Assembly (NCBI GenBank): GCA_963806325.1
Contig: CAWDXL010000021.1
Coordinates: forward strand, 18,624-82,623
Reading direction: 5' to 3'
Source of the DNA: Candidatus Parcubacteria bacterium
GTDB taxonomy: Bacteria > Patescibacteriota > Minisyncoccia > Phycocordibacterales > JAKAEA01
Length of the DNA: 64,000 bases
The notes below the pieces were generated by a model. It worked only from the letters and a program-made list of their open reading frames with translations, was not told the origin of the DNA and ran no database searches. Position numbers and translations under genes: made by a program. Shown here in pieces: positions 5,665-43,774 of the stretch; positions within the stretch are counted from its first letter, which is position 1; each line of letters begins with the position of its first letter.

Positions 5665-6324
5665 GTGATTTTTTTAAAAAATTTTCAACATACAGTGCAG
5701 CGAGGCTTCACCCTGATAGAGCTTATGGTGGTCATAGGCATCATTGCTGTTGTCACGGCTATCGTTATTCCAAGTTTCAAATCGTATGACTCTAATGTGC
5801 TGCTGACCAATGCCGCGTATACGCTGGCGCTCACTATTCGGCAGACTCAGTTTTATGGTATTTCCGTGAAACAGGGAAGCGACAGTTCATCAGGCAGCTA
5901 TTCCGATGCATACGGTATTCATTTTGACAGCCAAAAAAATTCCTATGTGGTCTATCAGGATATACCCAATAATGGTGTGCTCAGCTATTCGTATGACAGC
6001 ACCAATCCCGATGAATTTGTCAGCAGTACCGATCTTGACTCAGGCTACTCAATTCAAAAAATCTGTTTTGTCCAGCCGCCCGGAGATCCAGCATGTGCCG
6101 ACAGCGGAAGCAGCGCGTTTATCGATGTTGAATTTGATCGGCCTAATCCTGATGCTATTATCAATACGGCAAACATACCGGGCGCAGATGGGCCGTATCT
6201 GCCAAGTACCGCGGGACCATACGGCGCCTGCATTTACCTTATGTCAACTACAAATACCAGTACGGTCTATGTCGATAAAACAGGACAGATATCGGTAAAT
6301 TCGCCTTCGTGCCCAAGCTCATAA
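5665..6324 (+). CDS. Minor pilin / pseudopilin-like protein
   Basis: Prepilin motif QRGFTLIELMVVIGIIAVV. The ORF track starts at ATG 5629, which overlaps pilD. The in-frame GTG at 5665, just after the pilD stop, gives a typical short leader, so the start is uncertain. Confidence 0.75.
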   Translation: MIFLKNFQHTVQRGFTLIELMVVIGIIAVVTAIVIPSFKSYDSNVLLTNAAYTLALTIRQTQFYGISVKQGSDSSSGSYSDAYGIHFDSQKNSYVVYQDIPNNGVLSYSYDSTNPDEFVSSTDLDSGYSIQKICFVQPPGDPACADSGSSAFIDVEFDRPNPDAIINTANIPGADGPYLPSTAGPYGACIYLMSTTNTSTVYVDKTGQISVNSPSCPSS

Positions 6325-6334
6325 GTTTATTATT

Positions 6335-6937
6335 GTGAACTATTCTTCAAAAAATTCCGGTTTTACACTGATTGAGCTCATGGTATCGCTCGGCCTGTTT
6401 ACGGTTGTAAGTCTTATGGGTATTTCTGCAGTCCTTATCGTTATTGCTTCAAACAAAACGACCCTCTCATCAAATTCTGTTATTTCCAATCTTGATCTTG
6501 CCGTTGAGGATATGTCCCGAAGCATTCGCGTGGGCAGCAATTATCATTGCGGTGATTACAATTATGCTTCACCTGATTTATCGGTGGTATCTAACCCCCA
6601 TGATTGTCCGCCGCAGACAATCACTGCCGGCCAAAATGATAATTTTACCTTTGAGCCGAGCGCAGAAACAAACGATACCAATCGTGACACCTATTATCTG
6701 AGCGGTACAAAAATAGTGAAGGCGATCAACGGTGTTGATGAAGGAGTGATCACGCCGCCTGAAGTGACTATCGATTCATTAACGTTCTTTGTGAGCGGGT
6801 CGGCACAGCAAAGCGATCCTCCTCCAAATAGGACGCAGCCCAAGGTCATCATTATTATTGTCGGGTATGTTACAAACGGCGGCACAAAAACTTCGTTTAA
6901 TATTCAAACTACTGTTTCTCAGCGGGTCGTACTATAG
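6335..6937 (+). CDS. Minor pilin / pseudopilin-like protein
   Basis: The N-terminus MNYSSKNSGFTLIELMVSLGLFTVV has the G/FTLIE motif. 200 aa. Confidence 0.75.
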   Translation: MNYSSKNSGFTLIELMVSLGLFTVVSLMGISAVLIVIASNKTTLSSNSVISNLDLAVEDMSRSIRVGSNYHCGDYNYASPDLSVVSNPHDCPPQTITAGQNDNFTFEPSAETNDTNRDTYYLSGTKIVKAINGVDEGVITPPEVTIDSLTFFVSGSAQQSDPPPNRTQPKVIIIIVGYVTNGGTKTSFNIQTTVSQRVVL

Positions 6938-17805: not shown

Positions 17806-19865
<2,060 letters not shown>

Positions 19866-19882
19866 TGCTACTATATATTCAT

Positions 19883-20177
19883 ATGATTTCTACGAATGAT
19901 GTAAAAAAATTGGCGGCGTTGGCCCGTATAAAGCTGACGGCTGAGGAAGAAGAAAAGTTGGCCAAAGATATGGAAAGTATTCTAGGCTATGTTAAGCAAA
20001 TTAAAGAAGTTGCGGCTTCTTTAACGACGCCGGAAAAAACTGGAGACAGAAGAAAGAACGCGGAATGTGCTTCGGGAAGATTCCAATCCTCATGAGTCAG
20101 GTATCCATACTGAGGCAATTTTAGCTGAGGCGCCTCAGCGGGAAGGTGCGTATTTAAAGGTAAAAAAAATACTGTAA
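19883..20177 (+). CDS. gatC: Asp/Glu-tRNA amidotransferase subunit C, with one frame break at A6 (20034-20039)
   Basis: MISTNDVKKLAALARIKLTAEEEEKLAKDMESILGYVKQIKEV, then, after removing one A, ...PEKLETEERTRNVLREDSNPHESG...AYLKVKKIL. Its stop overlaps the gatA start (TAATG). Confidence 0.8.
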
Positions 20178-21616
20178 TGATAAACCTCAAAGAATTAACG
20201 ATACAAAAAGCTCGCATCGCTTTAGACAAGAAAGATTTTTCTGCTGTCGAACTTGCGCTGGCATATAAAGCAGAAATAGAAAAGAAAAATCCGGAGCTTC
20301 ATGTCTACCTCGAAGTTTTTCCCGATATTGAAGAGCAGGCGAAAAAAGCTGATGAGATGATACGGGCAGGGAAGTCACAGGCACTTACCGGCATTCCTTT
20401 TTCAATAAAGGATAATATTTTAATCAAAGGCCGAAAAGCCTCATCAGCATCAAAAATGCTTGAAAATTATACCGCCACCTACGATGCAACTGTTATCACA
20501 AAACTCAAAGCTCAAGGCGCAGTATTTTTAGGCAGAACAAATATGGATGAGTTTGCCATGGGAAGTTCAACCGAAAATTCAGCGTACGGAGCGACCAAAA
20601 ATCCGTGGGATACGTCGCGTGTGCCCGGCGGATCTTCGGGTGGTGCTGCAGCAGCACTCGCGGCCAATCTTTGTTTGGCGTCACTTGGTTCTGATACCGG
20701 CGGTTCTATCCGCCAGCCGGCAAGCTTTTGCGGACTGGTAGGCTTGAAGCCAACATACGGTGCTGTCTCGCGTCACGGCGTCATGGCCATGGCCTCATCT
20801 CTCGATCAAATCGGACCACTCGCAAAAAATGTTGAGGATGCTCAAATTATTTTTGATGCTATACGAGGCAAAGACCGATATGATTCAACCTCTATAGATA
20901 TTCCGGCTACTCCAAGTACTCCAGTTCCAACAAAGAAATTCAGAATCGGCGTGCCGTTTGATTTTGTCGGTCAGGGCGTGGATGAAGACGTTATGAAAAA
21001 TTTCAACGACTCGCTTGAAAAACTCAAGAAAGCGGGCTGCGAAATTGTTGATGTAAAATTGCCATACTTAAAATATTCTCTCGCGGTTTATTATATTTTG
21101 CAGCCGGCAGAAGTGTCTTCAAATCTTGCGCGGTTTGATGGAGTGAAATATGGCCTTCATAGAGACGGCAAAGATTTATTAGAAGATTATCTGCTCACGC
21201 GCCAAGACGGTTTTGGTCCTGAGAGCCGCCGCCGTATCATGCTCGGTACGTATGTACTCTCTTCAGGATATTATGATGCGTACTACTATAAGGCACACGC
21301 TGTACGCTCGCTTATCATTAAAGATTTCGAAAAAACATTTGAACATGTTGATGTTATTTTAACGCCTACATCTCCGGTGCCGGCATTTAAAGCGGGGGAA
21401 AAATCAAACGACCCGTTGGCAATGTACCTAGCCGATATTTTTACGGTCTCGGCAAACATCGTGACACTGCCCGCAATTTCCGTTCCATCTGGTTTTGCGG
21501 AAAGAGATGGAAAACAGCTGCCGCTCGGCATTCAATTTACCGCTCCTTACGGATGCGAGCATGTTTTGTTTGCTATCGGCAAGAAAATGGAAGCTGCAGT
21601 AATACCAAAAAAATAA
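20177..21616 (+). CDS. gatA: Glutamyl-tRNA(Gln) amidotransferase subunit A (amidase signature family)
   Basis: 479 aa with the amidase signature GGSSGGAAAALAA...GSDTGGSIRQPASFCG. It follows gatC directly. Confidence 0.92.
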   Translation: MINLKELTIQKARIALDKKDFSAVELALAYKAEIEKKNPELHVYLEVFPDIEEQAKKADEMIRAGKSQALTGIPFSIKDNILIKGRKASSASKMLENYTATYDATVITKLKAQGAVFLGRTNMDEFAMGSSTENSAYGATKNPWDTSRVPGGSSGGAAAALAANLCLASLGSDTGGSIRQPASFCGLVGLKPTYGAVSRHGVMAMASSLDQIGPLAKNVEDAQIIFDAIRGKDRYDSTSIDIPATPSTPVPTKKFRIGVPFDFVGQGVDEDVMKNFNDSLEKLKKAGCEIVDVKLPYLKYSLAVYYILQPAEVSSNLARFDGVKYGLHRDGKDLLEDYLLTRQDGFGPESRRRIMLGTYVLSSGYYDAYYYKAHAVRSLIIKDFEKTFEHVDVILTPTSPVPAFKAGEKSNDPLAMYLADIFTVSANIVTLPAISVPSGFAERDGKQLPLGIQFTAPYGCEHVLFAIGKKMEAAVIPKK

Positions 21617-21685
21617 TATGGCTGAAGCAGGAGCCCCCAAGGGCGATGCAAAAGTAGAAAAAAAAGCCAGACATTTACTGAGTAC

Positions 21686-22306
21686 ATGATCGAGCTCTTA
21701 GGCTTTATTATTCTCATCGTCCTCATATCAAATGCAATCGGAAGGGTTTCGCAAAAATACGGCTCGCTGACGTGGCAAACAATTGCCGCTGCAATCGGCA
21801 ACTGGATTATTTCTTCGCCAATCGGCCCCTTTGTTCAGTATTTTGCTGTTGCGTTTGTGACGGTCATTAACATTGTATGCCTTGTGCTCGTTTTCGGTAT
21901 CGTCTACAGTCTTATTATGCTTGGACGTGCCGACAGGCTGCTTGAAGAGACTATCATCCCAGAGGCTAAAGATGAGGAAGTTATAGAAAACAAAAATCCG
22001 CGCTGGCAACGTGTCGTGGAACATCTCGGATCAAAAAATCCCGGTGACTGGCGTCTTGCGGTACTTGAAGCTGATATTGTTCTTGATGAATTGCTTGATA
22101 CGCTTGGATACACCGGCGATACAATCGGTGACAAACTTAAGAAAGTGGCCAGAGGAGATTTTATTCCTCTCGATCAAGCTTGGGAAGCCCACCGGATCCG
22201 TAATGCAATTGCTCATGAAGGCCACGAATTCATGCTTTCAGAGCGCGAAGCTCGCCGCATTATCGGGCTCTACGAACAGGTATTTCGGTCATTTAACTTT
22301 ATTTAG
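21686..22306 (+). CDS. Hypothetical membrane protein (3 N-terminal TM helices, conserved soluble C-terminal domain)
   Basis: 206 aa with hydrophobic N-terminal helices and the C-terminal motif WEAHRIRNAIAHEG. No family name recognised. Confidence 0.6.
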   Translation: MIELLGFIILIVLISNAIGRVSQKYGSLTWQTIAAAIGNWIISSPIGPFVQYFAVAFVTVINIVCLVLVFGIVYSLIMLGRADRLLEETIIPEAKDEEVIENKNPRWQRVVEHLGSKNPGDWRLAVLEADIVLDELLDTLGYTGDTIGDKLKKVARGDFIPLDQAWEAHRIRNAIAHEGHEFMLSEREARRIIGLYEQVFRSFNFI

Positions 22307-22360
22307 CTTTGCTGGTGCTTGCAATAAGTACTTATTTAAGGTATATTTTGTATCCCCAAT

Positions 22361-22431
22361 AGGGGAGTAGTGGAACGGCACCACGGGAGGCTCATAACCT
22401 CTAAAAGCAGGTTCGACTCCTGCCTCCCCAA
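22361..22431 (+). tRNA. tRNA with CAU anticodon, possibly the initiator tRNA-fMet
   Basis: Hand-folded cloverleaf: acceptor aggggag/ctcccca (A1xA72 mismatch), D arm gtgg-aacggca-ccac, anticodon arm ggagg-ctcataa-cctct, T arm gcagg-ttcgact-cctgc. The 1:72 mismatch and two G-C pairs next to the anticodon loop are initiator-like. Confidence 0.75.
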
Positions 22432-22499
22432 CACGTCGCCGGTTTTCCTGTAATATGAGCATTGAATGAATACGCATTGCGTGGTATGTTTATTTTGCT

Positions 22500-22572
22500 G
22501 TCAGCGTAGCTCAGTTGGTAGAGCACAGGACTCATAAGCCTGGGGTCGTGGGTTCGATCCCCACCGCTGACA
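22500..22572 (+). tRNA. tRNA with CAU anticodon (elongator Met or lysidine-dependent Ile2)
   Basis: Acceptor gtcagcg/cgctgac, D arm gctc-agttggta-gagc, anticodon loop ctcataa, T arm gtggg-ttcgatc-cccac. There is one A-G mismatch at 31:39. Confidence 0.8.
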
Positions 22573-22595
22573 CATTTTTTAACCTTGGCATTTGT

Positions 22596-22623
22596 TTGAC
22601 AAAGCTTTTTATGAGTGTACGAT
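22596..22623 (+). promoter_or_regulatory. Sigma70-like promoter candidate (TTGACA, 16 nt, TACGAT) for the downstream noncoding transcript
   Basis: ttgaca at 22596-22601 and tacgat at 22618-22623. Confidence 0.4.
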
Positions 22624-22629
22624 TAACAA

Positions 22630-23024
22630 ACGGAACGACCGAATAGCTATTGGATGGCTGTCGGGCGACGTTCTATTTTAGATACGTCCTGTTATTTGGG
22701 AGGTTCGACATGCCGTCGAACAATATTGTGGGTAGTGGCATACGGGTGGTTTTTGGCGAAGTTGTTGGAGAGCCGAGTACTCCTGGTGCTCAGCGACTTC
22801 AACTTTCTCGGTGTGTCTGAGAGAGACGCCGAGGATGCCAAGCCGGCTGGAAATAGGATCAGAGAGAGGGTGGTTCTCCTTTCTCAGGAAGTCTGCTTTA
22901 CAGACGTCCCCAGAGGTGCACGTTTCCGACGGCGGTTCTGAAAATGGGTTTGGGCGCAGTTAATTATTTTGCTTGATCGGGAGGTCACATCTATGAGGGG
23001 GCAATCAACGCCCCCTTTTTTTTT
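22630..23024 (+). ncRNA. Candidate structured ncRNA of ~400 nt, identity unresolved
   Basis: This is a 525-bp gene-free gap between tRNA genes with a promoter-like element upstream. A strong terminator sits at 22997-23024 (gggggc/aatcaac/gccccc plus T9). It contains local hairpins such as gttcgac-atgcc-gtcgaac and gtctg-cttta-cagac. The only long ORF (22654-22941) has an Arg/Cys/Trp-rich, non-protein-like composition. Confidence 0.45.
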
Positions 23025-23098
23025 ATTGCTTCAAAAGCAAAAATCTGTTACATTCTAGGGTATCTTCTAAAGTCTTCTGTGGCTTTCCAAGAAAAATT

Positions 23099-23172
23099 GC
23101 GGTCGTAGCTCAACTGGTTAGAGCACTCGCCTGTCACGTGAGAGGTTGTGGGTTCAAGTCCCATCGGCCGCG
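23099..23172 (+). tRNA. tRNA-Asp (GUC)
   Basis: Acceptor gcggtcg/cggccgc (one G-U pair), D arm gctc-aactggtta-gagc, anticodon arm ctcgc-ctgtcac-gtgag, T arm gtggg-ttcaagt-cccat. Confidence 0.9.
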
Positions 23173-23203
23173 CAAAAGTTTCGATTTCTATTATGGTAGT
23201 ATT

Positions 23204-23584
23204 ATGCTCATGGATAAAAATACCGCCATTATCTTGCAGGTAGGAGTCAAGGCTTTTCTTAAAAATAAGGAGGGGAAATATTTGCTGGTGCATCGATCAT
23301 CCGAAAAATATAAGGGTACCAAGGGCTCATGGGATATTGTTGGCGGCCGGATTAATCCCGGCACGAAGCTTGTTGAAAATCTCAAGCGTGAAATAGCAGA
23401 AGAAACACAGCTTGAAATGTTGTCTGAACCGACTCTTATATATGCTCAGGATATTATTCCAAATGCCGAACGGCATATTGTCCGTCTTACATATCTCGCG
23501 GCGACAGACGGTGAACCAGTCCTAGACTTGTCTGAAAATGTTGAATATAAATGGCTGACGCTCGCGGAGCTCGCAAATCATTGA
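23204..23584 (+). CDS. NUDIX hydrolase
   Basis: Nudix box GGRINPGTKLVENLKREIAEETQL. The start is taken at ATG 23204 to clear tRNA-Asp. A +1 frame continues as DDLDIYVREILDKGLIS to 23636, so the C-terminus may be cut short by another indel. Confidence 0.8.
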   Translation: MLMDKNTAIILQVGVKAFLKNKEGKYLLVHRSSEKYKGTKGSWDIVGGRINPGTKLVENLKREIAEETQLEMLSEPTLIYAQDIIPNAERHIVRLTYLAATDGEPVLDLSENVEYKWLTLAELANH

Positions 23585-23665
23585 CGATCTTGATATATAT
23601 GTGCGGGAGATTTTGGATAAAGGGCTTATCTCATAATGATTCGATAAGATTTTAGTCACACCATT

Positions 23666-24402
23666 ATGCTTTCAAATTCATCCGACCCACGCGCAAAAGC
23701 AGAGGAACAGCGAAGAATTAATGAAGAACAGAAAGTGGAAGAAAAAAAGCGCCGTGACCATGAGGAGCGTCTGCGCGCCATTGAAGCCAAGAAACGGGAG
23801 TATGAAAATAAAAAGAAGGAGCTTATAGCTGCACAAAACGAGCGCCGCCGTTTTGGAGAAGATCTTGAACATGCAAAACGGGCACTTGCTATGGGAGGCA
23901 AGATTTTGATATTACCAGTAGTCGGCATGTTCATGATGAAGAAATGTTGGCACAGCAGCAAGCTCATGCGTTGCAGGAAAAGACCCAGGAACAGTCAAGA
24001 ATTGACCGCGAGATCAGGGAGCTTGAATTACAGCTTGCCGACAAAAGAAAACAGCATGAGGCGTTAAGAGCTGAATTGGAACATGTTGGCCACGAGCCTG
24101 TGCACAAAAAAACTGGATTTGCAGCATTTACTCCCGAGCAGGTGGAAAAGAGAAAATATTTTGACACTACCAAACGGCAATTCTCTGAAAAAGAATCTAA
24201 ACTCAAAGATATGGATCAGCATATTCGCCAGCTTGCTTCCGACACCGAAAAAGATGAGCGTGATATTAGTCAACTCTTGAACGGGCGCGCTAGCTCAGGG
24301 CAAATATTATTTATACATATATATCGTAAAGTCCTGCGGAAGATAATCCGTGACAATTTCTACGCGGTCACAGAATGTTTTACAAAAGCCAGCGACAGAT
24401 GA
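23666..24402 (+). CDS. Hypothetical coiled-coil protein (Lys/Glu/Arg-rich), with a frame break near 23930
   Basis: ORFs 23666-24067 and 23944-24402 are both strongly charged heptad-like sequence (EEQRRINEEQKVEEKKRRDHEE..., REIRELELQLADKRKQHEALRAELE). The last ~95 nt overlap the convergent methyltransferase, so the true 3' end is uncertain. Confidence 0.5.
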
Positions 24403-25038: not shown

Positions 25039-25313
25039 GCCGATGTAGCTCAGTTGGTAGAGCACGTCATTGGTAAACAAAATTGCCCTTCATCTTGGAA
25101 ACGAGATGCTGAAGCCCGAATAACGGTTAACGTCCATGTGTGTGGATAAGACCGTGGCGACAATCGCCCGAACGACTGACAAGGGGTGCTTCACTCATGA
25201 AAGCATGGGTATGCGCAAGATACAGTCTAACCCTCCTATAATCCGCCACGGCGGAGAAATGGAGGTAGATGTGAATGACGAGGTCAACGGTTCAATCCCG
25301 TTCATCGGCTCCA
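25039..25313 (+). tRNA. tRNA-Thr (GGU) interrupted after anticodon position 36 by a ~199-nt intron; encoded CCA
   Basis: The 5' exon is gccgatg-ta-gctc-agttggta-gagc-a-cgtca-ttggt (25039-25074). The 3' exon is aa-tgacg-aggtc-aacgg-ttcaatc-ccgtt-catcggc-t-cca (25274-25313). Joined, they give a perfect 73-nt cloverleaf with loop ttGGTaa. Confidence 0.85.
25075..25273 (+). ncRNA. Group I-like self-splicing intron in the tRNA-Thr anticodon loop (no ORF)
   Basis: The 5' exon ends in U and the insert ends in G. The insertion site between nt 36 and 37 matches known bacterial tRNA group I introns. The internal gcaagatacagtctaac resembles the conserved AAGAUAUAGUC core element (from memory). Several stem-loops are present (ggcga-caa-tcgcc, tccgc-cacg-gcgga, cctcc...ggagg). 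Confidence 0.65.
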
Positions 25314-25358
25314 ACATAAATAAAAGCACTGCATTTGATATGAGGTGCTTTTATTTAT

Positions 25359-25646
25359 ATGGATATACGTATATTGGGACAGAGGTTTGATGATTACTCG
25401 AAATATATTCGCGGACTTTCAAAGCACACGATTGCAAGAAATAGGCTAGTGCTCAGGCTTTACTGCAATTACAGCAAGGTTGCAAACATAGAGGAGGTGA
25501 CAGAAGAAAGCGTACAAGGTTTCTTTGTATACGGTAGAACGCAGCGTCAGTGGAAAGCAAATACTTTTATTGTATTCAGCTTGTCGCTCCGAGTGTTTTT
25601 TAGATGGGATTGGTTAGAAAATTTGGTAGAGAATACAAACATTTAA
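25359..25646 (+). pseudogene. Tyrosine integrase remnant (N-terminal SAM-like core-binding domain only)
   Basis: 95 aa with the pattern ...YIRGLSKHTIARNRLVLRLY...VTEESVQGFF...ANTFIVFSLSLRVFFRW. It is typical of phage-integrase N domains but has no catalytic domain. It lies directly 3' of the tRNA. Confidence 0.55.
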
Positions 25647-25836: not shown

Positions 25837-27752
25837 ATGCAGGTTACACCTCGCATCTACCAAAACGTGGCTGTGGAAGTTGCACTCAAGGGTCTGCGAG
25901 GCAGCCTCAGGCGCGCTCTCGTAGTCCTCGCGACAGGTCTTGGCAAAACCTTGACCGTCGCGTTCATCACCAAGAAATTCCGTCCCAAAAAGACGTTGTT
26001 TCTGGTTCACAACAACTTCATCCTCAAGCATGCCTTGGATGAGTTTCGCCTGGTTTTCGATGAGAAGACAACGATGGCGACATACAATGGCATGTCGAGA
26101 GATGGAGCAAAGGAAGCCGACATGGTTTTTGCTACCTGGCAGACCATGAGTAAAAACCTCAAGCGCTGGGCACGAAACCACTTTTGATCTCATTATTGTG
26201 GATGAAGCTCATCACTCGGAGGCTGATACCTATCGACCGGTGACTGCGTATTTCACTGGAGCGAAGCTTGGTATCACTGCTACGCCTGATCGACAAGACG
26301 ATGCGGACATCCGTGACGTCTTTGGTCCGGAAGTGATCAATATCACGCTCGAAGAAGCTATTGCCCGCGGGTGGCTGCCTCGAATCGAGTATCACGTCAT
26401 CACTGACGAGAGTCTCGACGAGAACATGCTTCAGAAAATCGTTGGAGAGATCCGCGAAGGTAAGAAGCGTTTTACGATGGCAGAAGTCAACCGTCGTATC
26501 TTCATCAAGAAGCGTGATGTTGAGATCACTCGGATCATCAACGGCTACGCCGAGAAGGCTGTCGTGTTCTGCAGCTCGATCACTCATGCTGAGCGACTGA
26601 GCCAGACGCTTGACCTTGCCGCAACCTTTCATTGCAAGAAGGGTAGCGGACAGAAAGAGACCTACAATCAAAATCGTGATACTCTCGAAGATTTGAAGAA
26701 TGGGAAAGTTCGTCGGGTGTGCGCAGTCAATGCCTTCAATGAAGGTGTGAATGTGCCAACCGTCGGACTCGTCAGCCTTCTGTCGGGTCACTGGAGTCCT
26801 GACGATTTTCCGGCAACAGTTGGGTCGCGGGCTTCGTCCTGGAAAGGACAAGCTCATCGTTCTCGACTTTGTCGGGAATCTCGAGCGCATTCAATTGGTG
26901 CTTGAGATGATGAACAAGGTTTCTGATCTTCATGAACAATATACTCCTAGGGATGAAATTGAACGTGAAGGTTATGTCCGGCAGAAGTTTGAAGTATCCG
27001 GAAAAGGATTTGAGTTTACCTTCTCTGACAAGGTAGTGGACTTAATGAAAGTTTTGCAGCATTGCGAACGGCAATTTTACCCGACATGGCAGGAAGCCAG
27101 TGGAGTAGCTGCAAAATTGGGGATTAGAACCAAGGAGGAATACTACAGGCGTTATATGGAAGATGAACGTCTCCCAAGTAGTCCTTCGAGCATGTATTCT
27201 GATTTCCCCGATTGGTCGATGTTTCTGCGAGGAGAAATGCGCAAAAATTATTACCCAACTCTGGATCAGGCAAGGAAGTCTGTACAGAAGTTGGGTATTG
27301 TATCTTATCCGGAATACAAGAGGCGTTTTAAGGAGGACTCGCGTCTTCCAAGTAATCCGAACAGAGAATACCGCAATTTTCCAGGCTATCGAATCTTCTT
27401 GGGGGTGAGCAAGAAAAAGTACAGGACATGGCAGGAAGCCAGTCGTGCTGCTTTAAAGCTTGGAATAGACTCTCTTTCTGAATATCGTAAGCGTCGTAAG
27501 GAAGATCTTGCTCTTCCAGGTGATCCCAATTTCACCTACTCTGATTTTCCAGGCTATCGAGTATTCTTCGGTAGAAATTTTCAGTCAAAATATCAGTCCT
27601 GCATTTTGGCTGCAAAAGCTGCAAGAAAATTGGGTATTCACTCGGCGAGTGATTACAAGCAGCGTTATAAGCAGGACCCACTCCTTCCTGGCAACCCTTA
27701 CGGGATGTATGAGGATTTTCCGGGCTGGCCCCAATTCCTTGGCAAGAAGTGA
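25837..27752 (+). pseudogene. SF2 DEAH-box helicase (type III restriction res-subunit-like) with a C-terminal 4x ~57-aa repeat; two frame breaks
   Basis: Motif I LATGLGKT, motif II IIVDEAHH (restored by shortening T4 at 26182-26185), motif VI QQLGRGLRPGK in the third ORF. The C-terminal repeats follow the pattern W/LxxA...KLGI.S..EY..R.KED.RLP..P...Y.DFPGW..FLG. Confidence 0.75.
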
Positions 27753-30190: not shown

Positions 30191-31055
30191 TCAATACGCC
30201 AAAAAGGATGCATAAAAAAAGCCCGGGAATATTTTCCCGGGCCGGCTAAAGATAAAATATCCGCATGAAAATGTTATCCTGCTGCGAAAGCCCCTATCGT
30301 GCCGCCACTGTTTCCAGCAGCAGGAATATAGAGCGGAGCTTGAGTGCATGTAGGATGCAATCTTGCGCCGCACAGACCGGCTTGACAAGCTTCTCCCGAA
30401 TTTATTCACGAATAGTTCGACAGTGTGGGACTCGCAAAAAGCCGCATCTCGCATTTTGAGATAAGTGAGGAGTGCGGCGTGTGCGGTATCATTCAAAGAA
30501 ATTATCCTCGGTCTTGCGTTGATGCCCATGAGACGGAGAGTGCGTCCGTCCGCTTCGCTGTTGATCGCGCTTCGGGGAATCTCTATGAGCTCACTGATCT
30601 TTGCGCCGGTGGTATACATTATATGCATGATCGCCAGATCACGAGCGCCAGATAGGGTGGTTGCGTCGGGTATAGCGAGCACTTTTGCCATCTCTTCGGA
30701 CGTGATCGGTTTTACAGCCTGTCGCACACACTTGGGTGCGTACAGATGTATCGTCGGGTTAGCCGCTACCATCTTTTCGCCTGCCAGCCATTTGTACAGG
30801 GTCCTGAGGCTGGAACATTTTCTAGCAATCGTATTTGGGGAATATTGTTCATGCAGGCTGGAGGTATAGCGCCGTGGTCTGCTCGTTGGCCGACAGCATG
30901 AGTTGACACATGTTTGCACTGCAGTTTCCTTGCCTGAGATAAGCTTCATATTGCGCCACGTCGACACCGTAGCATGCGATCGTCTGATCGCTCATACGGC
31001 ACTCATGTCTGAGGTAGCTGAGAAACTGACCGACAAGCGTAAGCTGCGCTTCCAT
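30191..31055 (-). pseudogene. Decayed Xer-like tyrosine recombinase (multiple frame breaks, degenerate catalytic C-terminus)
   Basis: N-terminal piece 30849-31055 (LVGQFLSYLRHECRMSDQTIACYGVDVAQYEAYL). Middle piece with TIARKCSSLRTLYKWL, ARDLAIMHIMYTTGAKISELIEI. I could not recover the expected HxLRH...LLGH...Y box cleanly in any frame. Confidence 0.6.
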
Positions 31056-37929: not shown

Positions 37930-38078
37930 TGTGCAGGAGTTTGGTGAATATTTATAGAAATAGATTGTCATCCCCGTGAAAACGGGGATCTAGGCTCCAT
38001 ACGACCTAGATTCCCGCCTGCGCGGGAATGACATCTTATATGCATTTCTCAATTACTCACCAGACTCTGTGCAGGAGT
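37930..38078. repeat. MITE/REP-like unit: a 68-nt nested-palindrome core (37966-38033) flanked by an 11-nt direct repeat, tgtgcaggagt
   Basis: The core is tgtcat-[ccccg tgaaaa cgggg]-atctagg-ctccatacga-cctagat-[tcccgc ctgc gcggga]-atgaca. The direct repeats lie at 37930-37940 and 38068-38078. Imperfect inverted ttggtgaata / attactcaccag sequences sit inside the direct repeats. Confidence 0.6.
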
Positions 38079-40935: not shown

Positions 40936-42147
40936 TTAACCTAAGTCATATCTTTTAAATTCTTGTAATTTTTCCTCAACAACTGCAATTCCACGAGTAT
41001 AAGGAATATCTTTCAGGAGAATTGCAGAGTCTCTAATTTTTTCATCAAGACGCAGTCCACAACTTTTATCACTCCATAATGCATTCAGCTTATTTTTAAC
41101 TCTTCGTACACCAAATTCGTTTACAAGAAAATACAAGCCAAAATTGATTAGAGTTTTATTAAGAGTATGAGCATTTCTTTTGCCAGTTCTTTCTCTCTGA
41201 ATAAGAGTATTTAGGACATCCTCAGAAGAAATATCTATTTTGAATGCTAATTGATTAGCAGGTTTATCGGTAATGTCAGTCCAAGTTTTTAGGATTGCCT
41301 TTTTCCACAATACTTCACTAAAGATTGACTCGAATGTAATTACTTCAGGTTTATTAGGCAGAAGCTTTGAGACAAAACTGTATACACTTTTTTGACTATT
41401 GAATCTAATCTCAAGCCTCAATACTTGTTCGGTCTTACGCAATTTATCTTGAAGCAGACCGTACTCACTCTTCGTTTTATCTTTATCAACAGAGATATTT
41501 CTTGTTTTCTCAATGTCCTTCATTTTGTCATAGAAGATGATGTTATGAGAGCTTGTATAGAAATAAAGGCTCTCGCCATCATTTCTGTACTCTCGTGTGT
41601 TTACTTCCATTCGTCTTCCTAAATCCGCCTTTTTAAGTTCAGCCAATACATCTCTTACTGTCATTGGATAAGGTAGCAAAATGTTTTTGCCAAAATGAAC
41701 CTTTGTAGCAATTGAGTTTTTGATGGCTTTTTCGCTTGCGTTTATCCCCATTGTTGCGAGCTTCCGTTGCAGTAAGACAATAAGAGACTTAAAACAATTC
41801 TCTGAGTCTATAATTTCCTGGAGGTTGTTTCCGTAGAGTATTTTCGGAATAGAAAACTCTATATGAAGATAATAATTTAGTTCACCATCCTCAAATCGTC
41901 GGTATGCAGTAAGGCGGGGTTTATAGATGTCTTCCTGCCTGTCTTCAAAAGTTGAATTTTGAACATACTTCTTGAATGATTTTTGATAATTGAATGTACT
42001 AGGAATTTCTTTTCCTTGCTTGATAACTAACTCGGGATAAAACAACTCAGGTTTTACGACCTGAAACTCTGGGTATTTTATCTTTAGACTAACGGTATCA
42101 AGCATAAGCGTTAGCCTATTTGCGTTGCTTTTTATGTTCATATCCAT
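40936..42147 (-). CDS. Putative replication initiation protein (resembles the phage/plasmid gene II/X Rep family)
   Basis: 403 aa. The spaced pattern LDTVSLKI..., LHIEFSIPKILYGNNL, VHFGKN, ESLYFYTSSHNIIFYDK, VLRLEIRFN matches my recollection of that family (SLPK..G.N / YDK / LR.E). This is not verified by search. Confidence 0.4.
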   Translation of the reverse strand: MDMNIKSNANRLTLMLDTVSLKIKYPEFQVVKPELFYPELVIKQGKEIPSTFNYQKSFKKYVQNSTFEDRQEDIYKPRLTAYRRFEDGELNYYLHIEFSIPKILYGNNLQEIIDSENCFKSLIVLLQRKLATMGINASEKAIKNSIATKVHFGKNILLPYPMTVRDVLAELKKADLGRRMEVNTREYRNDGESLYFYTSSHNIIFYDKMKDIEKTRNISVDKDKTKSEYGLLQDKLRKTEQVLRLEIRFNSQKSVYSFVSKLLPNKPEVITFESIFSEVLWKKAILKTWTDITDKPANQLAFKIDISSEDVLNTLIQRERTGKRNAHTLNKTLINFGLYFLVNEFGVRRVKNKLNALWSDKSCGLRLDEKIRDSAILLKDIPYTRGIAVVEEKLQEFKRYDLG

Positions 42148-42213
42148 TTGTTATCTCATAACTTGTTGTCCCGAATATTCGTGGAATACTCCTGATGAGA
42201 TGCAAAATGAGTT

Positions 42214-42384
42214 TTATTGGTCTTCTTTTTTGTCTTGACCAATGTCCAAAGAGTCTTGTTCATAGACAGCTTTATAGAGATTTACAAAATTATTAGCTCG
42301 AAAAGACGCCTCTTCGTCAGAGAGTTCTATTCCAAAGCGTGCTTTGTAAATCTGCTTGTATTCTTCTATGGCTTCTTTGGGTAA
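42214..42384 (-). CDS. Small hypothetical protein
   Basis: About 56 aa starting at MLPKEAIEEYKQIY. Start uncertain. Confidence 0.35.
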   Translation of the reverse strand, partial: LPKEAIEEYKQIYKARFGIELSDEEASFRANNFVNLYKAVYEQDSLDIGQDKKEDQ

Positions 42385-42613
42385 CATAAGAAGCCCGCTC
42401 TTTACCTGACAGGTTCTTGAACGCTTAATAGCGACCTGCCAAGTAAGCAACGGGCTTACTCATGGCGTTCAAGATTTACGCAGCCAAAATAAAAAATAGG
42501 CTTACTTTGTAGGGTAATAAAAAAGCGTCTTTTTGACGCAATTTGTGAGACTTTTGTGAGAAATACTTCTAATTTCTTTTTTACTGAGTAATTTTTGAAC
42601 AAAATTCACAAAC

Positions 42614-43534
42614 TCAAAGTGATTTTTGTGAATGCTTCTTTGCTCGTTTTCTATTACGTTCACGTACACAATCTTTATTTTCTAAAGTATCAGGACAATA
42701 TTTTTTAGAGTGACCAAAAGGCAGTGCCTTACCACAATTATTACAAAAGGCTGAAACTCTGTATAAAGCGAGCATCTCTTCATGAAACAATGCTGCTAAG
42801 CTTCTGGCTACAACAACCGATATTTTCTTAGGTCGATTTTTTAGACCTGATTTTTTAATTTGTGTTTCATCAATCTCGTATTCTTCTGCACCAGTTGGGA
42901 TGAAACCATCGTTTTGATGTTGGTCTAAGGCTGTCCAGAGATTTGAGTTTGGGATTGTTAAGTTAAAAACATCTGAGTTAGATGAGGTTCTTAATTTCTC
43001 GTAAATATTAATATTACCTTTCATTATTTGTTCGTATTGCCTGTATATTTCCTCACCGAATTTCTTGTGATTATATAAGCCTCCCCAGAAATACAATCCT
43101 AATTTTTCGCCCATTACTTTGTCGTCCTCACGATTTATATACATCTGCCAAAACAATGGAGTATTGTAAGTACCTTGATAACTATATAAACCCAACTCAA
43201 ATCCTACGCCATTTCTTATAGTAAATTCACCTTCTTTTATAGATTCCATCAATTTCTTTTCAAGGTTTTCAGCCCAATCTTTTGCAGGCTTTAATTCTGA
43301 AATCTGTGAAAGCTGATTTTTCTTAAAGTTGTAAATTACAGATTGATATGGAAGAAACAGATTATCTAACGTAAGAGGCTCATTTTGTAATAGGGTTACA
43401 AATTTATCCCAGAGAATATTATAGGTGACCTCATCAAAATAATTCTCTGTTTCAGAATCCTTGCGGTGGTCGTTTACTATAATGGCATAGCGAATAGGAA
43501 ATCTGTCGGGTAAATTCTTCATATTATGCTTCAC
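42614..43534 (-). CDS. Hypothetical protein with a C-terminal Cys-cluster and basic tail (possible DNA binding)
   Basis: 306 aa. C-terminus CNNCGKALPFGHSKKYCPDTLENKDCVRERNRKRAKKH. Confidence 0.5.
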   Translation of the reverse strand: MKHNMKNLPDRFPIRYAIIVNDHRKDSETENYFDEVTYNILWDKFVTLLQNEPLTLDNLFLPYQSVIYNFKKNQLSQISELKPAKDWAENLEKKLMESIKEGEFTIRNGVGFELGLYSYQGTYNTPLFWQMYINREDDKVMGEKLGLYFWGGLYNHKKFGEEIYRQYEQIMKGNINIYEKLRTSSNSDVFNLTIPNSNLWTALDQHQNDGFIPTGAEEYEIDETQIKKSGLKNRPKKISVVVARSLAALFHEEMLALYRVSAFCNNCGKALPFGHSKKYCPDTLENKDCVRERNRKRAKKHSQKSL

Positions 43535-43636
43535 ATTACTTCACTTTTATATTTTATTCAAATTACAAAGCGGACTTCTCTTTACCCTCAAAATATGTTT
43601 AAATTGAACCACAACTAAATACGGTATAAGCCTAAA

Positions 43637-43774
43637 CCAGTGAGAAATCACTGGCATGGCATAAAATCCGCACGACACAAGAAAACCCGTTATCAGGGCG
43701 TGTCGTGCGTTGCTGGGAGAAATCCCAGCATGACCTTCGGGTCACCTGGTAGCGGGCTTTGTTGTATCCGCTAC
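43637..43774 (+). ncRNA. Cluster of five consecutive stable hairpins (candidate structured RNA or single-strand replication origin)
   Basis: The five hairpins are ccagtga-GAAA-tcactgg, cgcacgacac...gtgtcgtgcg (10 bp), gctggga-GAAA-tcccagc, tgacc-TTCG-ggtca and gtagcgg...ccgctac. The GNRA and UUCG tetraloops appear only when read on the plus strand. Confidence 0.5.

Follow-up and report, generated by a model that had tools for sequence, protein, structure and literature searches.

ROOL (RF03087) and GOLLD (RF01998) are non-coding RNAs of several hundred nucleotides (nt) that are richer in guanine and cytosine (GC) than their surroundings and are found next to tRNA genes; the DNA around them is often mobile or variable. 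Here we analyze an element with some resemblance to them in a 64,000-nt stretch of a Candidatus Parcubacteria genome (assembly GCA_963806325.1, contig CAWDXL010000021.1, positions 18,624 to 82,623). This whole stretch is referred to as the window, and all positions are those of the window unless a related locus is named. The element, hereafter the unit, lies in the spacer between a tRNA-Met and a tRNA-Asp gene. We tentatively consider it a lineage-specific non-coding RNA of ~395 nt, which would be a self-contained cargo in a hypervariable slot within a tRNA cluster that is conserved in Patescibacteria, and we put the probability of this reading at about 45%. The unit shares with ROOL and GOLLD the adjacency to tRNA genes, a length of several hundred nt and the raised GC content. 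In contrast to them, it is shorter, matches no covariance model at any threshold tried and has no conserved homologues found by our searches, while its predicted fold consists of local hairpins only and its global architecture is ill-defined.

Two other kinds of described elements are worth comparing with the unit. Homing-endonuclease cassettes between tRNA genes include GIY-YIG segB of phage T4 and, among the related loci analyzed here (designated by L numbers), the GIY-YIG genes of L005 and L011, the HNH gene of L012 and the LAGLIDADG genes of L082 and L083. The unit has in common with them the type of site, its own signals and the variable presence. However, it contains no endonuclease-like sequence in any frame and no intact open reading frame (ORF). 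Orphan bacterial small RNA (sRNA) genes are similar in their independent promoter, Rho-independent terminator, non-coding character and narrow phylogenetic range, yet ~395 nt is long for a base-pairing sRNA, and the unit is known here from sequence alone. To our knowledge, sRNAs of Patescibacteria are essentially uncharacterised.

The borders of the slot and the putative transcription signals of the unit are as follows.
22361-22432, + strand: tRNA-Met (CAU) 1, the first of the cluster (ARAGORN; Rfam tRNA, 56.5 bits)
22500-22573, + strand: tRNA-Met (CAU) 2, the left border of the slot (ARAGORN; Rfam tRNA, 68.9 bits)
22596-22623, + strand: candidate sigma-70-type promoter (-35 box TTGACA at 22596-22601, 16-nt spacer, -10 box TACGAT at 22618-22623)
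22630-23024, + strand: predicted transcript of ~395 nt, bounded by the promoter and the terminator, with a G-rich body at 22625-22994
22995-23024, + strand: intrinsic terminator (stem 22995-23002 / 23010-23017, 7-nt loop, T9 at 23016-23024)
23099-23173, + strand: tRNA-Asp (GTC), the right border of the slot (ARAGORN; Rfam tRNA, 67.5 bits)

According to both ARAGORN and Rfam, the spacer between tRNA-Met 2 and tRNA-Asp extends over 525 bp (22574-23098). Its sequence opens, directly 3' of tRNA-Met 2, with ACA followed by six T residues. The promoter candidate TTGACA-16-TACGAT matches the consensus at 10 of 12 positions and is the top one of five promoter-like sites that the promoter scan revealed in the region 21500-24000. 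As 3.6 such sites are obtained upon shuffling, their number represents no excess. Comparable boxes are found at further RNA genes in the window; tRNA-Thr, for instance, is preceded by TTGACT-18-TAAGAT. Judging by the position of the boxes, transcription of the unit would start near 22630. At the other end, the terminator scan identified GAGGGGGC-AATCAAC-GCCCCCTT (22995-23017), a stem of 8 pairs, 6 of them G-C, with a pair probability of 0.96. The GC content is 0.53 at 22700-22999 and 0.51 at 22625-22994 compared to 0.43 for the whole window, and G outweighs C in the unit (0.31 versus 0.20). In this compact genome, most intergenic gaps of the tightly packed window are below 300 nt, so that an untranslated block of 400 nt is unusual there. 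All the elements of the preliminary description of this locus that concern its layout, namely the 525-bp spacer, the promoter, the strong terminator, the higher GC content and the local hairpins, were thus reproduced by ARAGORN, Rfam, signal scans and folding.

We then asked which of the known RNA families might be present. The 4227 models of Rfam 15 were applied at the gathering threshold to the whole window and at E ≤ 10 to the region 22400-23250 (an 851-nt search space). At the gathering threshold the window contains five tRNAs and one LOOT RNA, and nothing else. The permissive search of 22400-23250 returned only tRNA-derived matches and matches of at most 19 bits; there were none to RNase P, signal recognition particle (SRP), 6S, ROOL, GOLLD, raiA, OLE or HEARO RNAs, and none to introns, riboswitches or T-boxes. 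ARAGORN, run with default, intron and relaxed transfer-messenger RNA (tmRNA) settings, found neither a tmRNA nor an intron-containing tRNA in the spacer. The identical Rfam procedure detected group I introns in two related loci, which shows that the method works on such DNA. These introns, scoring 62 and 70 bits, are located near the same gene block in L004 (6302-6502, - strand) and L008 (4523-4715, - strand).

The individual candidates were rejected on the following grounds. RNase P RNA (RF00010/RF00011) gives no covariance-model match at either threshold, and its motifs (GGAAAGUCC..., ACAGAA..., GGCUUA) are absent by eye from the spacer sequence. For tmRNA (RF00023, including permuted forms) the ARAGORN output is empty, and the sole Rfam match, of 7 bits, falls on the T-arm of tRNA-Met 1. 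SRP and 6S RNAs have no Rfam match, and the predicted folds of the unit are multibranched rather than rod-like. ROOL, GOLLD, raiA, OLE and HEARO were discarded for want of any match at E ≤ 10. Group I and group II introns were rejected since there is no Intron_gpI or Intron_gpII match and both flanking tRNAs are complete, which leaves no host gene for an intron. For a riboswitch, T-box or attenuator leader there is no Rfam cis-regulatory match and no known aptamer, and the downstream gene is a tRNA. The unit was initially described as having no recognisable identity and, in particular, no convincing features of RNase P RNA, tmRNA or SRP RNA. Both statements hold with covariance models and ARAGORN, which yield the flanking tRNAs and noise only. 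The accompanying suggestion of a divergent housekeeping RNA does not, as not even a weak match to the RNase P, tmRNA, SRP or 6S models was obtained. The unit is not a housekeeping RNA.

Next, we considered whether the unit could code for a protein. As written, the sequence offers one ORF with an ATG start, probably a spurious one.
22654-22941, + strand: ORF of 95 aa (ORF95, from the ORF listing)

With a codon model trained on the window, ORF95 scores -0.08, below all 137 chunks of real genes. It lacks the 3-base periodicity (p=0.66) that is present in real genes and in the cargo genes of relatives (p ≤ 0.015). ORF95 has no match among 5.8 billion proteins and none in 1.84 billion representatives searched with full HMMER, and the six-frame concatenate of the unit has no match at E ≤ 10 among the 5.8 billion. 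Pfam does not match any ORF of the unit, nor the repaired ORFs discussed below. Comparison of the unit with the cargo of relatives (tblastx and blastp) revealed nothing significant. The non-coding character proposed earlier is therefore in agreement with both the native codon model and the missing protein homologues. The more specific claim that the spacer has no credible ORF stands only in part: the codon model and the lack of homologues speak for it, but ORF95 does exist and the contig has frameshifts nearby.

Folding of the unit provided a structural signal on the predicted RNA strand. The features of the predicted fold are listed below.
22698-22703, + strand: GGGAGG motif 1, separated from the downstream ATG 22710 by 6 nt and in part unpaired in the ensemble
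22703-22721, + strand: hairpin GUUCGAC-AUGCC-GUCGAAC of one minimum free energy fold, replaced by other pairings when the 5' end is moved
22805-22835, + strand: stable hairpin, 10-bp helix 22805-22814 / 22826-22835 (mean pair probability 0.97)
22862-22885, + strand: stable hairpin GAGAGAGGG / UCCUUUCUC (mean pair probability 0.95)
22891-22905, + strand: hairpin GUCUG-CUUUA-CAGAC (mean pair probability 0.99)
22911-22940, + strand: hairpin CAGAG...UUCUG with an inner helix at 22921-22931 (mean pair probabilities 0.99 and 0.94)
22979-22984, + strand: GGGAGG motif 2, mostly single-stranded by prediction (unpaired probability 0.7-0.85)

For 22625-22994, that is, with the terminator left out, the + strand has a fold z of -3.3 (40 shuffles) or -3.1 (150 shuffles), while the - strand reaches only -1.7 to -1.9; folding is thus strand-asymmetric. 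Once the terminator is included, the + strand value becomes -4.3. Background genomic windows have a mean z of -0.3 to -0.8 with a standard deviation of 1.3-1.4, and ~5% of them reach -3.1. As a positive control, a 370-nt window containing the LOOT RNA gives -9.3. GGGAGG occurs on the + strand in 15 copies per 64 kb, two of which are within the unit. The structural signal is real, though of moderate strength.

Homologues of the unit were sought in several ways. The spacer was compared by nhmmer with 101 loci (80 anchored on GatA, 14 from metagenomes and 7 further ones of Patescibacteria), and no match was obtained even at E ≤ 100. There was no blastn match to the unit in a phage collection, and five scans of a viral collection with different segments of the unit gave 0 matches. 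A metagenome scan with the pattern GGGAGGTTCGAC-N5-GTCGAAC, derived from the 22703-22721 hairpin, returned 14 matches, all of them in unrelated high-GC contexts; since their flanks have no homology, we regard these matches as chance. In the literature we found nothing specific to this element. Overall, no evidence was found that the unit belongs to a conserved RNA class.

The gene block around the unit is conserved among relatives: LigA, GatC, GatA, a membrane protein, tRNA-Met, tRNA-Met, the slot and tRNA-Asp follow one another. Among the proteins of Patescibacteria metagenome-assembled genomes (MAGs), none exceeds 67% identity to GatA (20177-21616), and LigA is 58-81% identical, depending on the aligned piece, to that of the JGI contigs L082 and L083. 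For the membrane protein of 206 aa encoded upstream of the tRNAs, the 5.8 billion proteins include, besides itself, no relative above ~50-60% identity. These identities indicate that the lineage is represented by this MAG alone. What the variable tRNA spacer holds differs between the related loci.
L001: signal-peptide protein
L018: NlpC/P60-like protein
L005, L011: GIY-YIG endonuclease
L012: HNH endonuclease
L082, L083: LAGLIDADG endonuclease
L081: aminotransferase
L083, L099: small GC-rich proteins with a common N-terminal motif
L029, L098: nothing (3-54 nt)

L082 and L083 are from two samples and code for identical neighbour proteins, yet the site is nearly closed in L082 (5982-5984) and carries a 790-bp cassette in L083 alone (5982-6771). 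The cassette comprises a GC-rich ORF together with a promoter-like sequence and a terminator. This difference is a presence/absence polymorphism within one population. Together with the differing slot contents among genomes, it identifies the tRNA-cluster site as an insertion hot spot. The small proteins encoded at L083 6150-6611 and L099 1422-1850 share the motif GRVR..R..RS..KAA.GV...L.AQ(Q)DL (pairwise E=4e-4), and their genes have a GC content of 0.52-0.54 versus 0.40-0.45 in the hosts. They may represent a mobile small-protein family that Pfam does not match. The unit resembles this cargo in the slot, the raised GC, the possession of its own promoter-like sequence and terminator, and the size (~400-600 nt). 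On the other hand, the L083 and L099 cargo has clear ORFs, strong 3-base periodicity and the common N-terminal motif, and the unit is similar to it neither in DNA nor in protein.

No second copy of the 3' end of tRNA-Met 2 or tRNA-Asp is present in the window when up to 3 mismatches are allowed, and around the unit we found no direct repeats, att-like duplications or terminal inverted repeats. An integrated element at a tRNA gene, such as a genomic island, was rejected because neither a repeat of the tRNA 3' ends nor flanking repeats were found. Internal duplication in the unit is not significant, and the absence of tandem repeats means that it does not resemble a TIGR or CRISPR array.

Why, then, do we favour an RNA? 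Folding differs between the strands, protein similarity is lacking altogether and native coding statistics are absent, all of which argues for an RNA. So do the best promoter of the neighbourhood, the strong terminator, the several hairpins with pair probabilities above 0.9 and the compactness of the genome. If this is what the unit is, transcription would begin near 22630 at TTGACA-16-TACGAT, as the consensus match implies, and would end at the terminator at 22995-23024. According to the single-sequence prediction, the RNA would fold into stable local hairpins in its 3' two-thirds (22805-22940). More speculatively, it might act in trans, plausibly via exposed G-rich segments, and the two GGGAGG motifs could pair with C/U-rich partners. 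An RNA of this kind, if real, would be a new orphan member of the broad category of independently transcribed bacterial non-coding RNAs; it would not amount to a demonstrated new class.

A number of observations weigh against an RNA gene. In the locus, metagenome and viral searches no homologue was found, hence there is no support from conservation or covariation. In relatives, every filled slot contains a protein gene that apparently brings its own promoter and terminator, and therefore such a layout is not specific to RNA genes. Borderline coding-like signals do appear in the unit if one frameshift is allowed, and 1-nt assembly frameshifts are present near it. The fold signal ranks no higher than the top ~5% of genomic windows, the protein-coding L099 cargo cassette folds equally (z = -3.2), and a regression on base composition places the unit 237th of 1276. 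Its global fold is ill-defined, with an ensemble diversity of 86 and a 5' third that shifts with the chosen start, and no GNRA or UNCG tetraloops are seen by eye in the predicted loops.

The strongest competitor, a live rival even if we think it less likely, is an orphan small-protein cassette whose frame was broken either by a 1-nt assembly indel or very recently, as in a young pseudogene. The protein would have 76-96 aa, starting at ATG 22710 (or TTG 22650), changing frame somewhere in 22740-22812 and stopping at TGA 22939-22941, 54 nt before the terminator. Precedent is on its side, all filled slots in relatives being protein-coding cassettes, and so is the quality of the contig. LigA is split into four frame segments (17806-20170 region, + strand) by three 1-nt frameshifts near 18150, 19150 and 19550, and GatC has one near 20040. 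Both genes are intact in relatives, and the frameshifts fall within 2.4 kb (17.8-20.2 kb). This points to assembly indel errors, or else to pseudogenes. Since these essential neighbour genes carry 1-nt frameshifts, calls of 'no ORF' in the contig are unsafe, and the absence of a good ORF in the unit becomes less secure. The hypothetical coding frame is the following.
22710-22941, + strand: hypothetical ORF of 76 aa, which needs a one-base assembly error at ~22740-22812 to join the frame of ATG 22710 to that of ORF95; predicted peptide segments MPSNNIVGSGIR... and ...VVLLSQEVCFTDVPR

The statistics of this frame are borderline. The sliding codon score is 0.34, the level of real genes, at 22710-22799, starting exactly at ATG 22710, and then 0.09-0.18 in frame +1. 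Any single-base deletion within 22740-22812 produces an open frame of 76 codons ending at the same TGA, with scores of up to 0.13. The best one-shift codon path scores 0.186 (p=0.047 against shuffles, corrected for selection), and by periodicity the best path changes frame by +1 near 22768 (p ~0.03). In the repaired frame codon position 1 is coding-like (G 0.42, T 0.12), and GGGAGG stands 6 nt before the ATG. Yet a score of 0.186 is low for a gene, corresponding to the 6th percentile of real coding chunks and being exceeded by 14% of antisense chunks. GGGAGG is weak evidence for coding, because the native gene starts (~45 genes of the window) have no Shine-Dalgarno sequence and so do not need such a ribosome-binding site. 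A -10-like TATAAT or TATACT precedes the start codon of many native genes by a few bases, suggesting that mRNAs of this lineage have no leader or a very short one. The AlphaFold2 confidence (predicted local distance difference test, pLDDT) is 44 for the repaired ORF and 55 for ORF95, values that are too low for a fold search and are expected for single sequences; the ORF95 model is uninformative. Finally, the protein would be a complete orphan, given that no frame has a homologue or a Pfam match in the searches described above, and it requires an error that is invisible in the present data.

Less likely still, in our opinion, is an inert remnant, i.e. foreign DNA or a long-decayed cassette in the insertion hot spot that has kept a promoter-like sequence and a terminator and has no function. 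The variation of the slot among relatives, even within one population as seen for the 790-bp cassette, would fit this explanation, as would the integrase fragments 2-8 kb downstream (25359-25646 and 30191-30967). The unit is GC-richer than its host, like the foreign cargo of L083 and L099, has no homologue of any kind and shows an unexceptional fold signal. However, Patescibacteria genomes are small and the window is tightly packed, so one would expect DNA without a use to be lost. The unit has a perfect -35 box and an intact terminator. There is also no residual protein similarity, which a recent pseudogene would keep, and the unit is accompanied neither by direct or terminal inverted repeats nor by att-like copies of the tRNA 3' ends.

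A bolder version of the RNA interpretation would make the unit the first known example of a new class of structured Patescibacteria RNAs ~400 nt in length, travelling from promoter to terminator as slot cargo like homing-endonuclease genes and acting in trans, e.g. via exposed, Shine-Dalgarno-like GGGAGG, although native genes of this organism have no Shine-Dalgarno sequence themselves. We regard it as improbable. A new large non-coding RNA was one of the two options suggested for this locus at the start; as far as a conserved class is meant, the evidence leans against it, as the slots of relatives hold unrelated protein genes or nothing and the nhmmer search is empty. The weakest explanation, a divergent housekeeping RNA, a known large non-coding RNA class (ROOL, GOLLD, raiA, OLE or HEARO) or a group I/II intron, has circumstantial points in its favour (the ~400-nt length, the tRNA-gene neighbours and the raised GC) but is largely refuted and very improbable in view of the missing Rfam matches, the absence of a tmRNA or an intron according to ARAGORN, the intact flanking tRNAs and a slot that in relatives is empty or otherwise filled, unlike that of an essential RNA.

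Several other features of the window were recorded along the way. The full-length LOOT RNA scores 78 bits against a gathering score of 46.4; a promoter-like sequence TTGAAC...TATAAG is located upstream of it, and the 370-nt window surrounding it folds far more strongly than the unit.
43629-43744, + strand: LOOT RNA (RF03000)

At 37935-38070 there is a long near-perfect hairpin of palindromic units (GTCATCCCCGTGAAAACGGGGATCTAGG / CCTAGATTCCCGCCTGCGCGGGAATGAC) with a fold z of -6.4 and sub-threshold Rfam matches to WsnRNA46 (38 bits, E=1.8e-6) and FtrB. Its appearance is that of a palindromic element of the miniature inverted-repeat transposable element (MITE) or repetitive extragenic palindromic (REP) type. 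Another strongly structured region (42140-42640, - strand, z=-6.9) spans a 78-aa ORF (42214-42450) and adjoining intergenic DNA, and corresponds to no Rfam family at the gathering threshold. Mobile DNA downstream of the tRNA cluster is suggested by the combination of a truncated or split N-terminal domain of a phage integrase (25359-25646, in the region 25136-25646), four INT_rpt repeats in one protein (26751-27752) and an integrase-family gene of 258 aa (30191-30967, - strand). Two overlapping same-strand ORFs of 133 and 152 aa at 23666-24402 (+ strand), without a Pfam match, may be another gene split by a frameshift.

If the unit is a true RNA, it would belong to a very small number of non-housekeeping RNA candidates from the reduced Patescibacteria genomes, and it would mean that tRNA-cluster slots can carry RNA cargo besides endonuclease and small-protein genes. 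The more solid and more useful result is the slot itself: downstream of ligA-gatCA, the tRNA-Met-tRNA-Met-tRNA-Asp cluster forms a conserved hot spot for insertions, the content of which varies between genomes.

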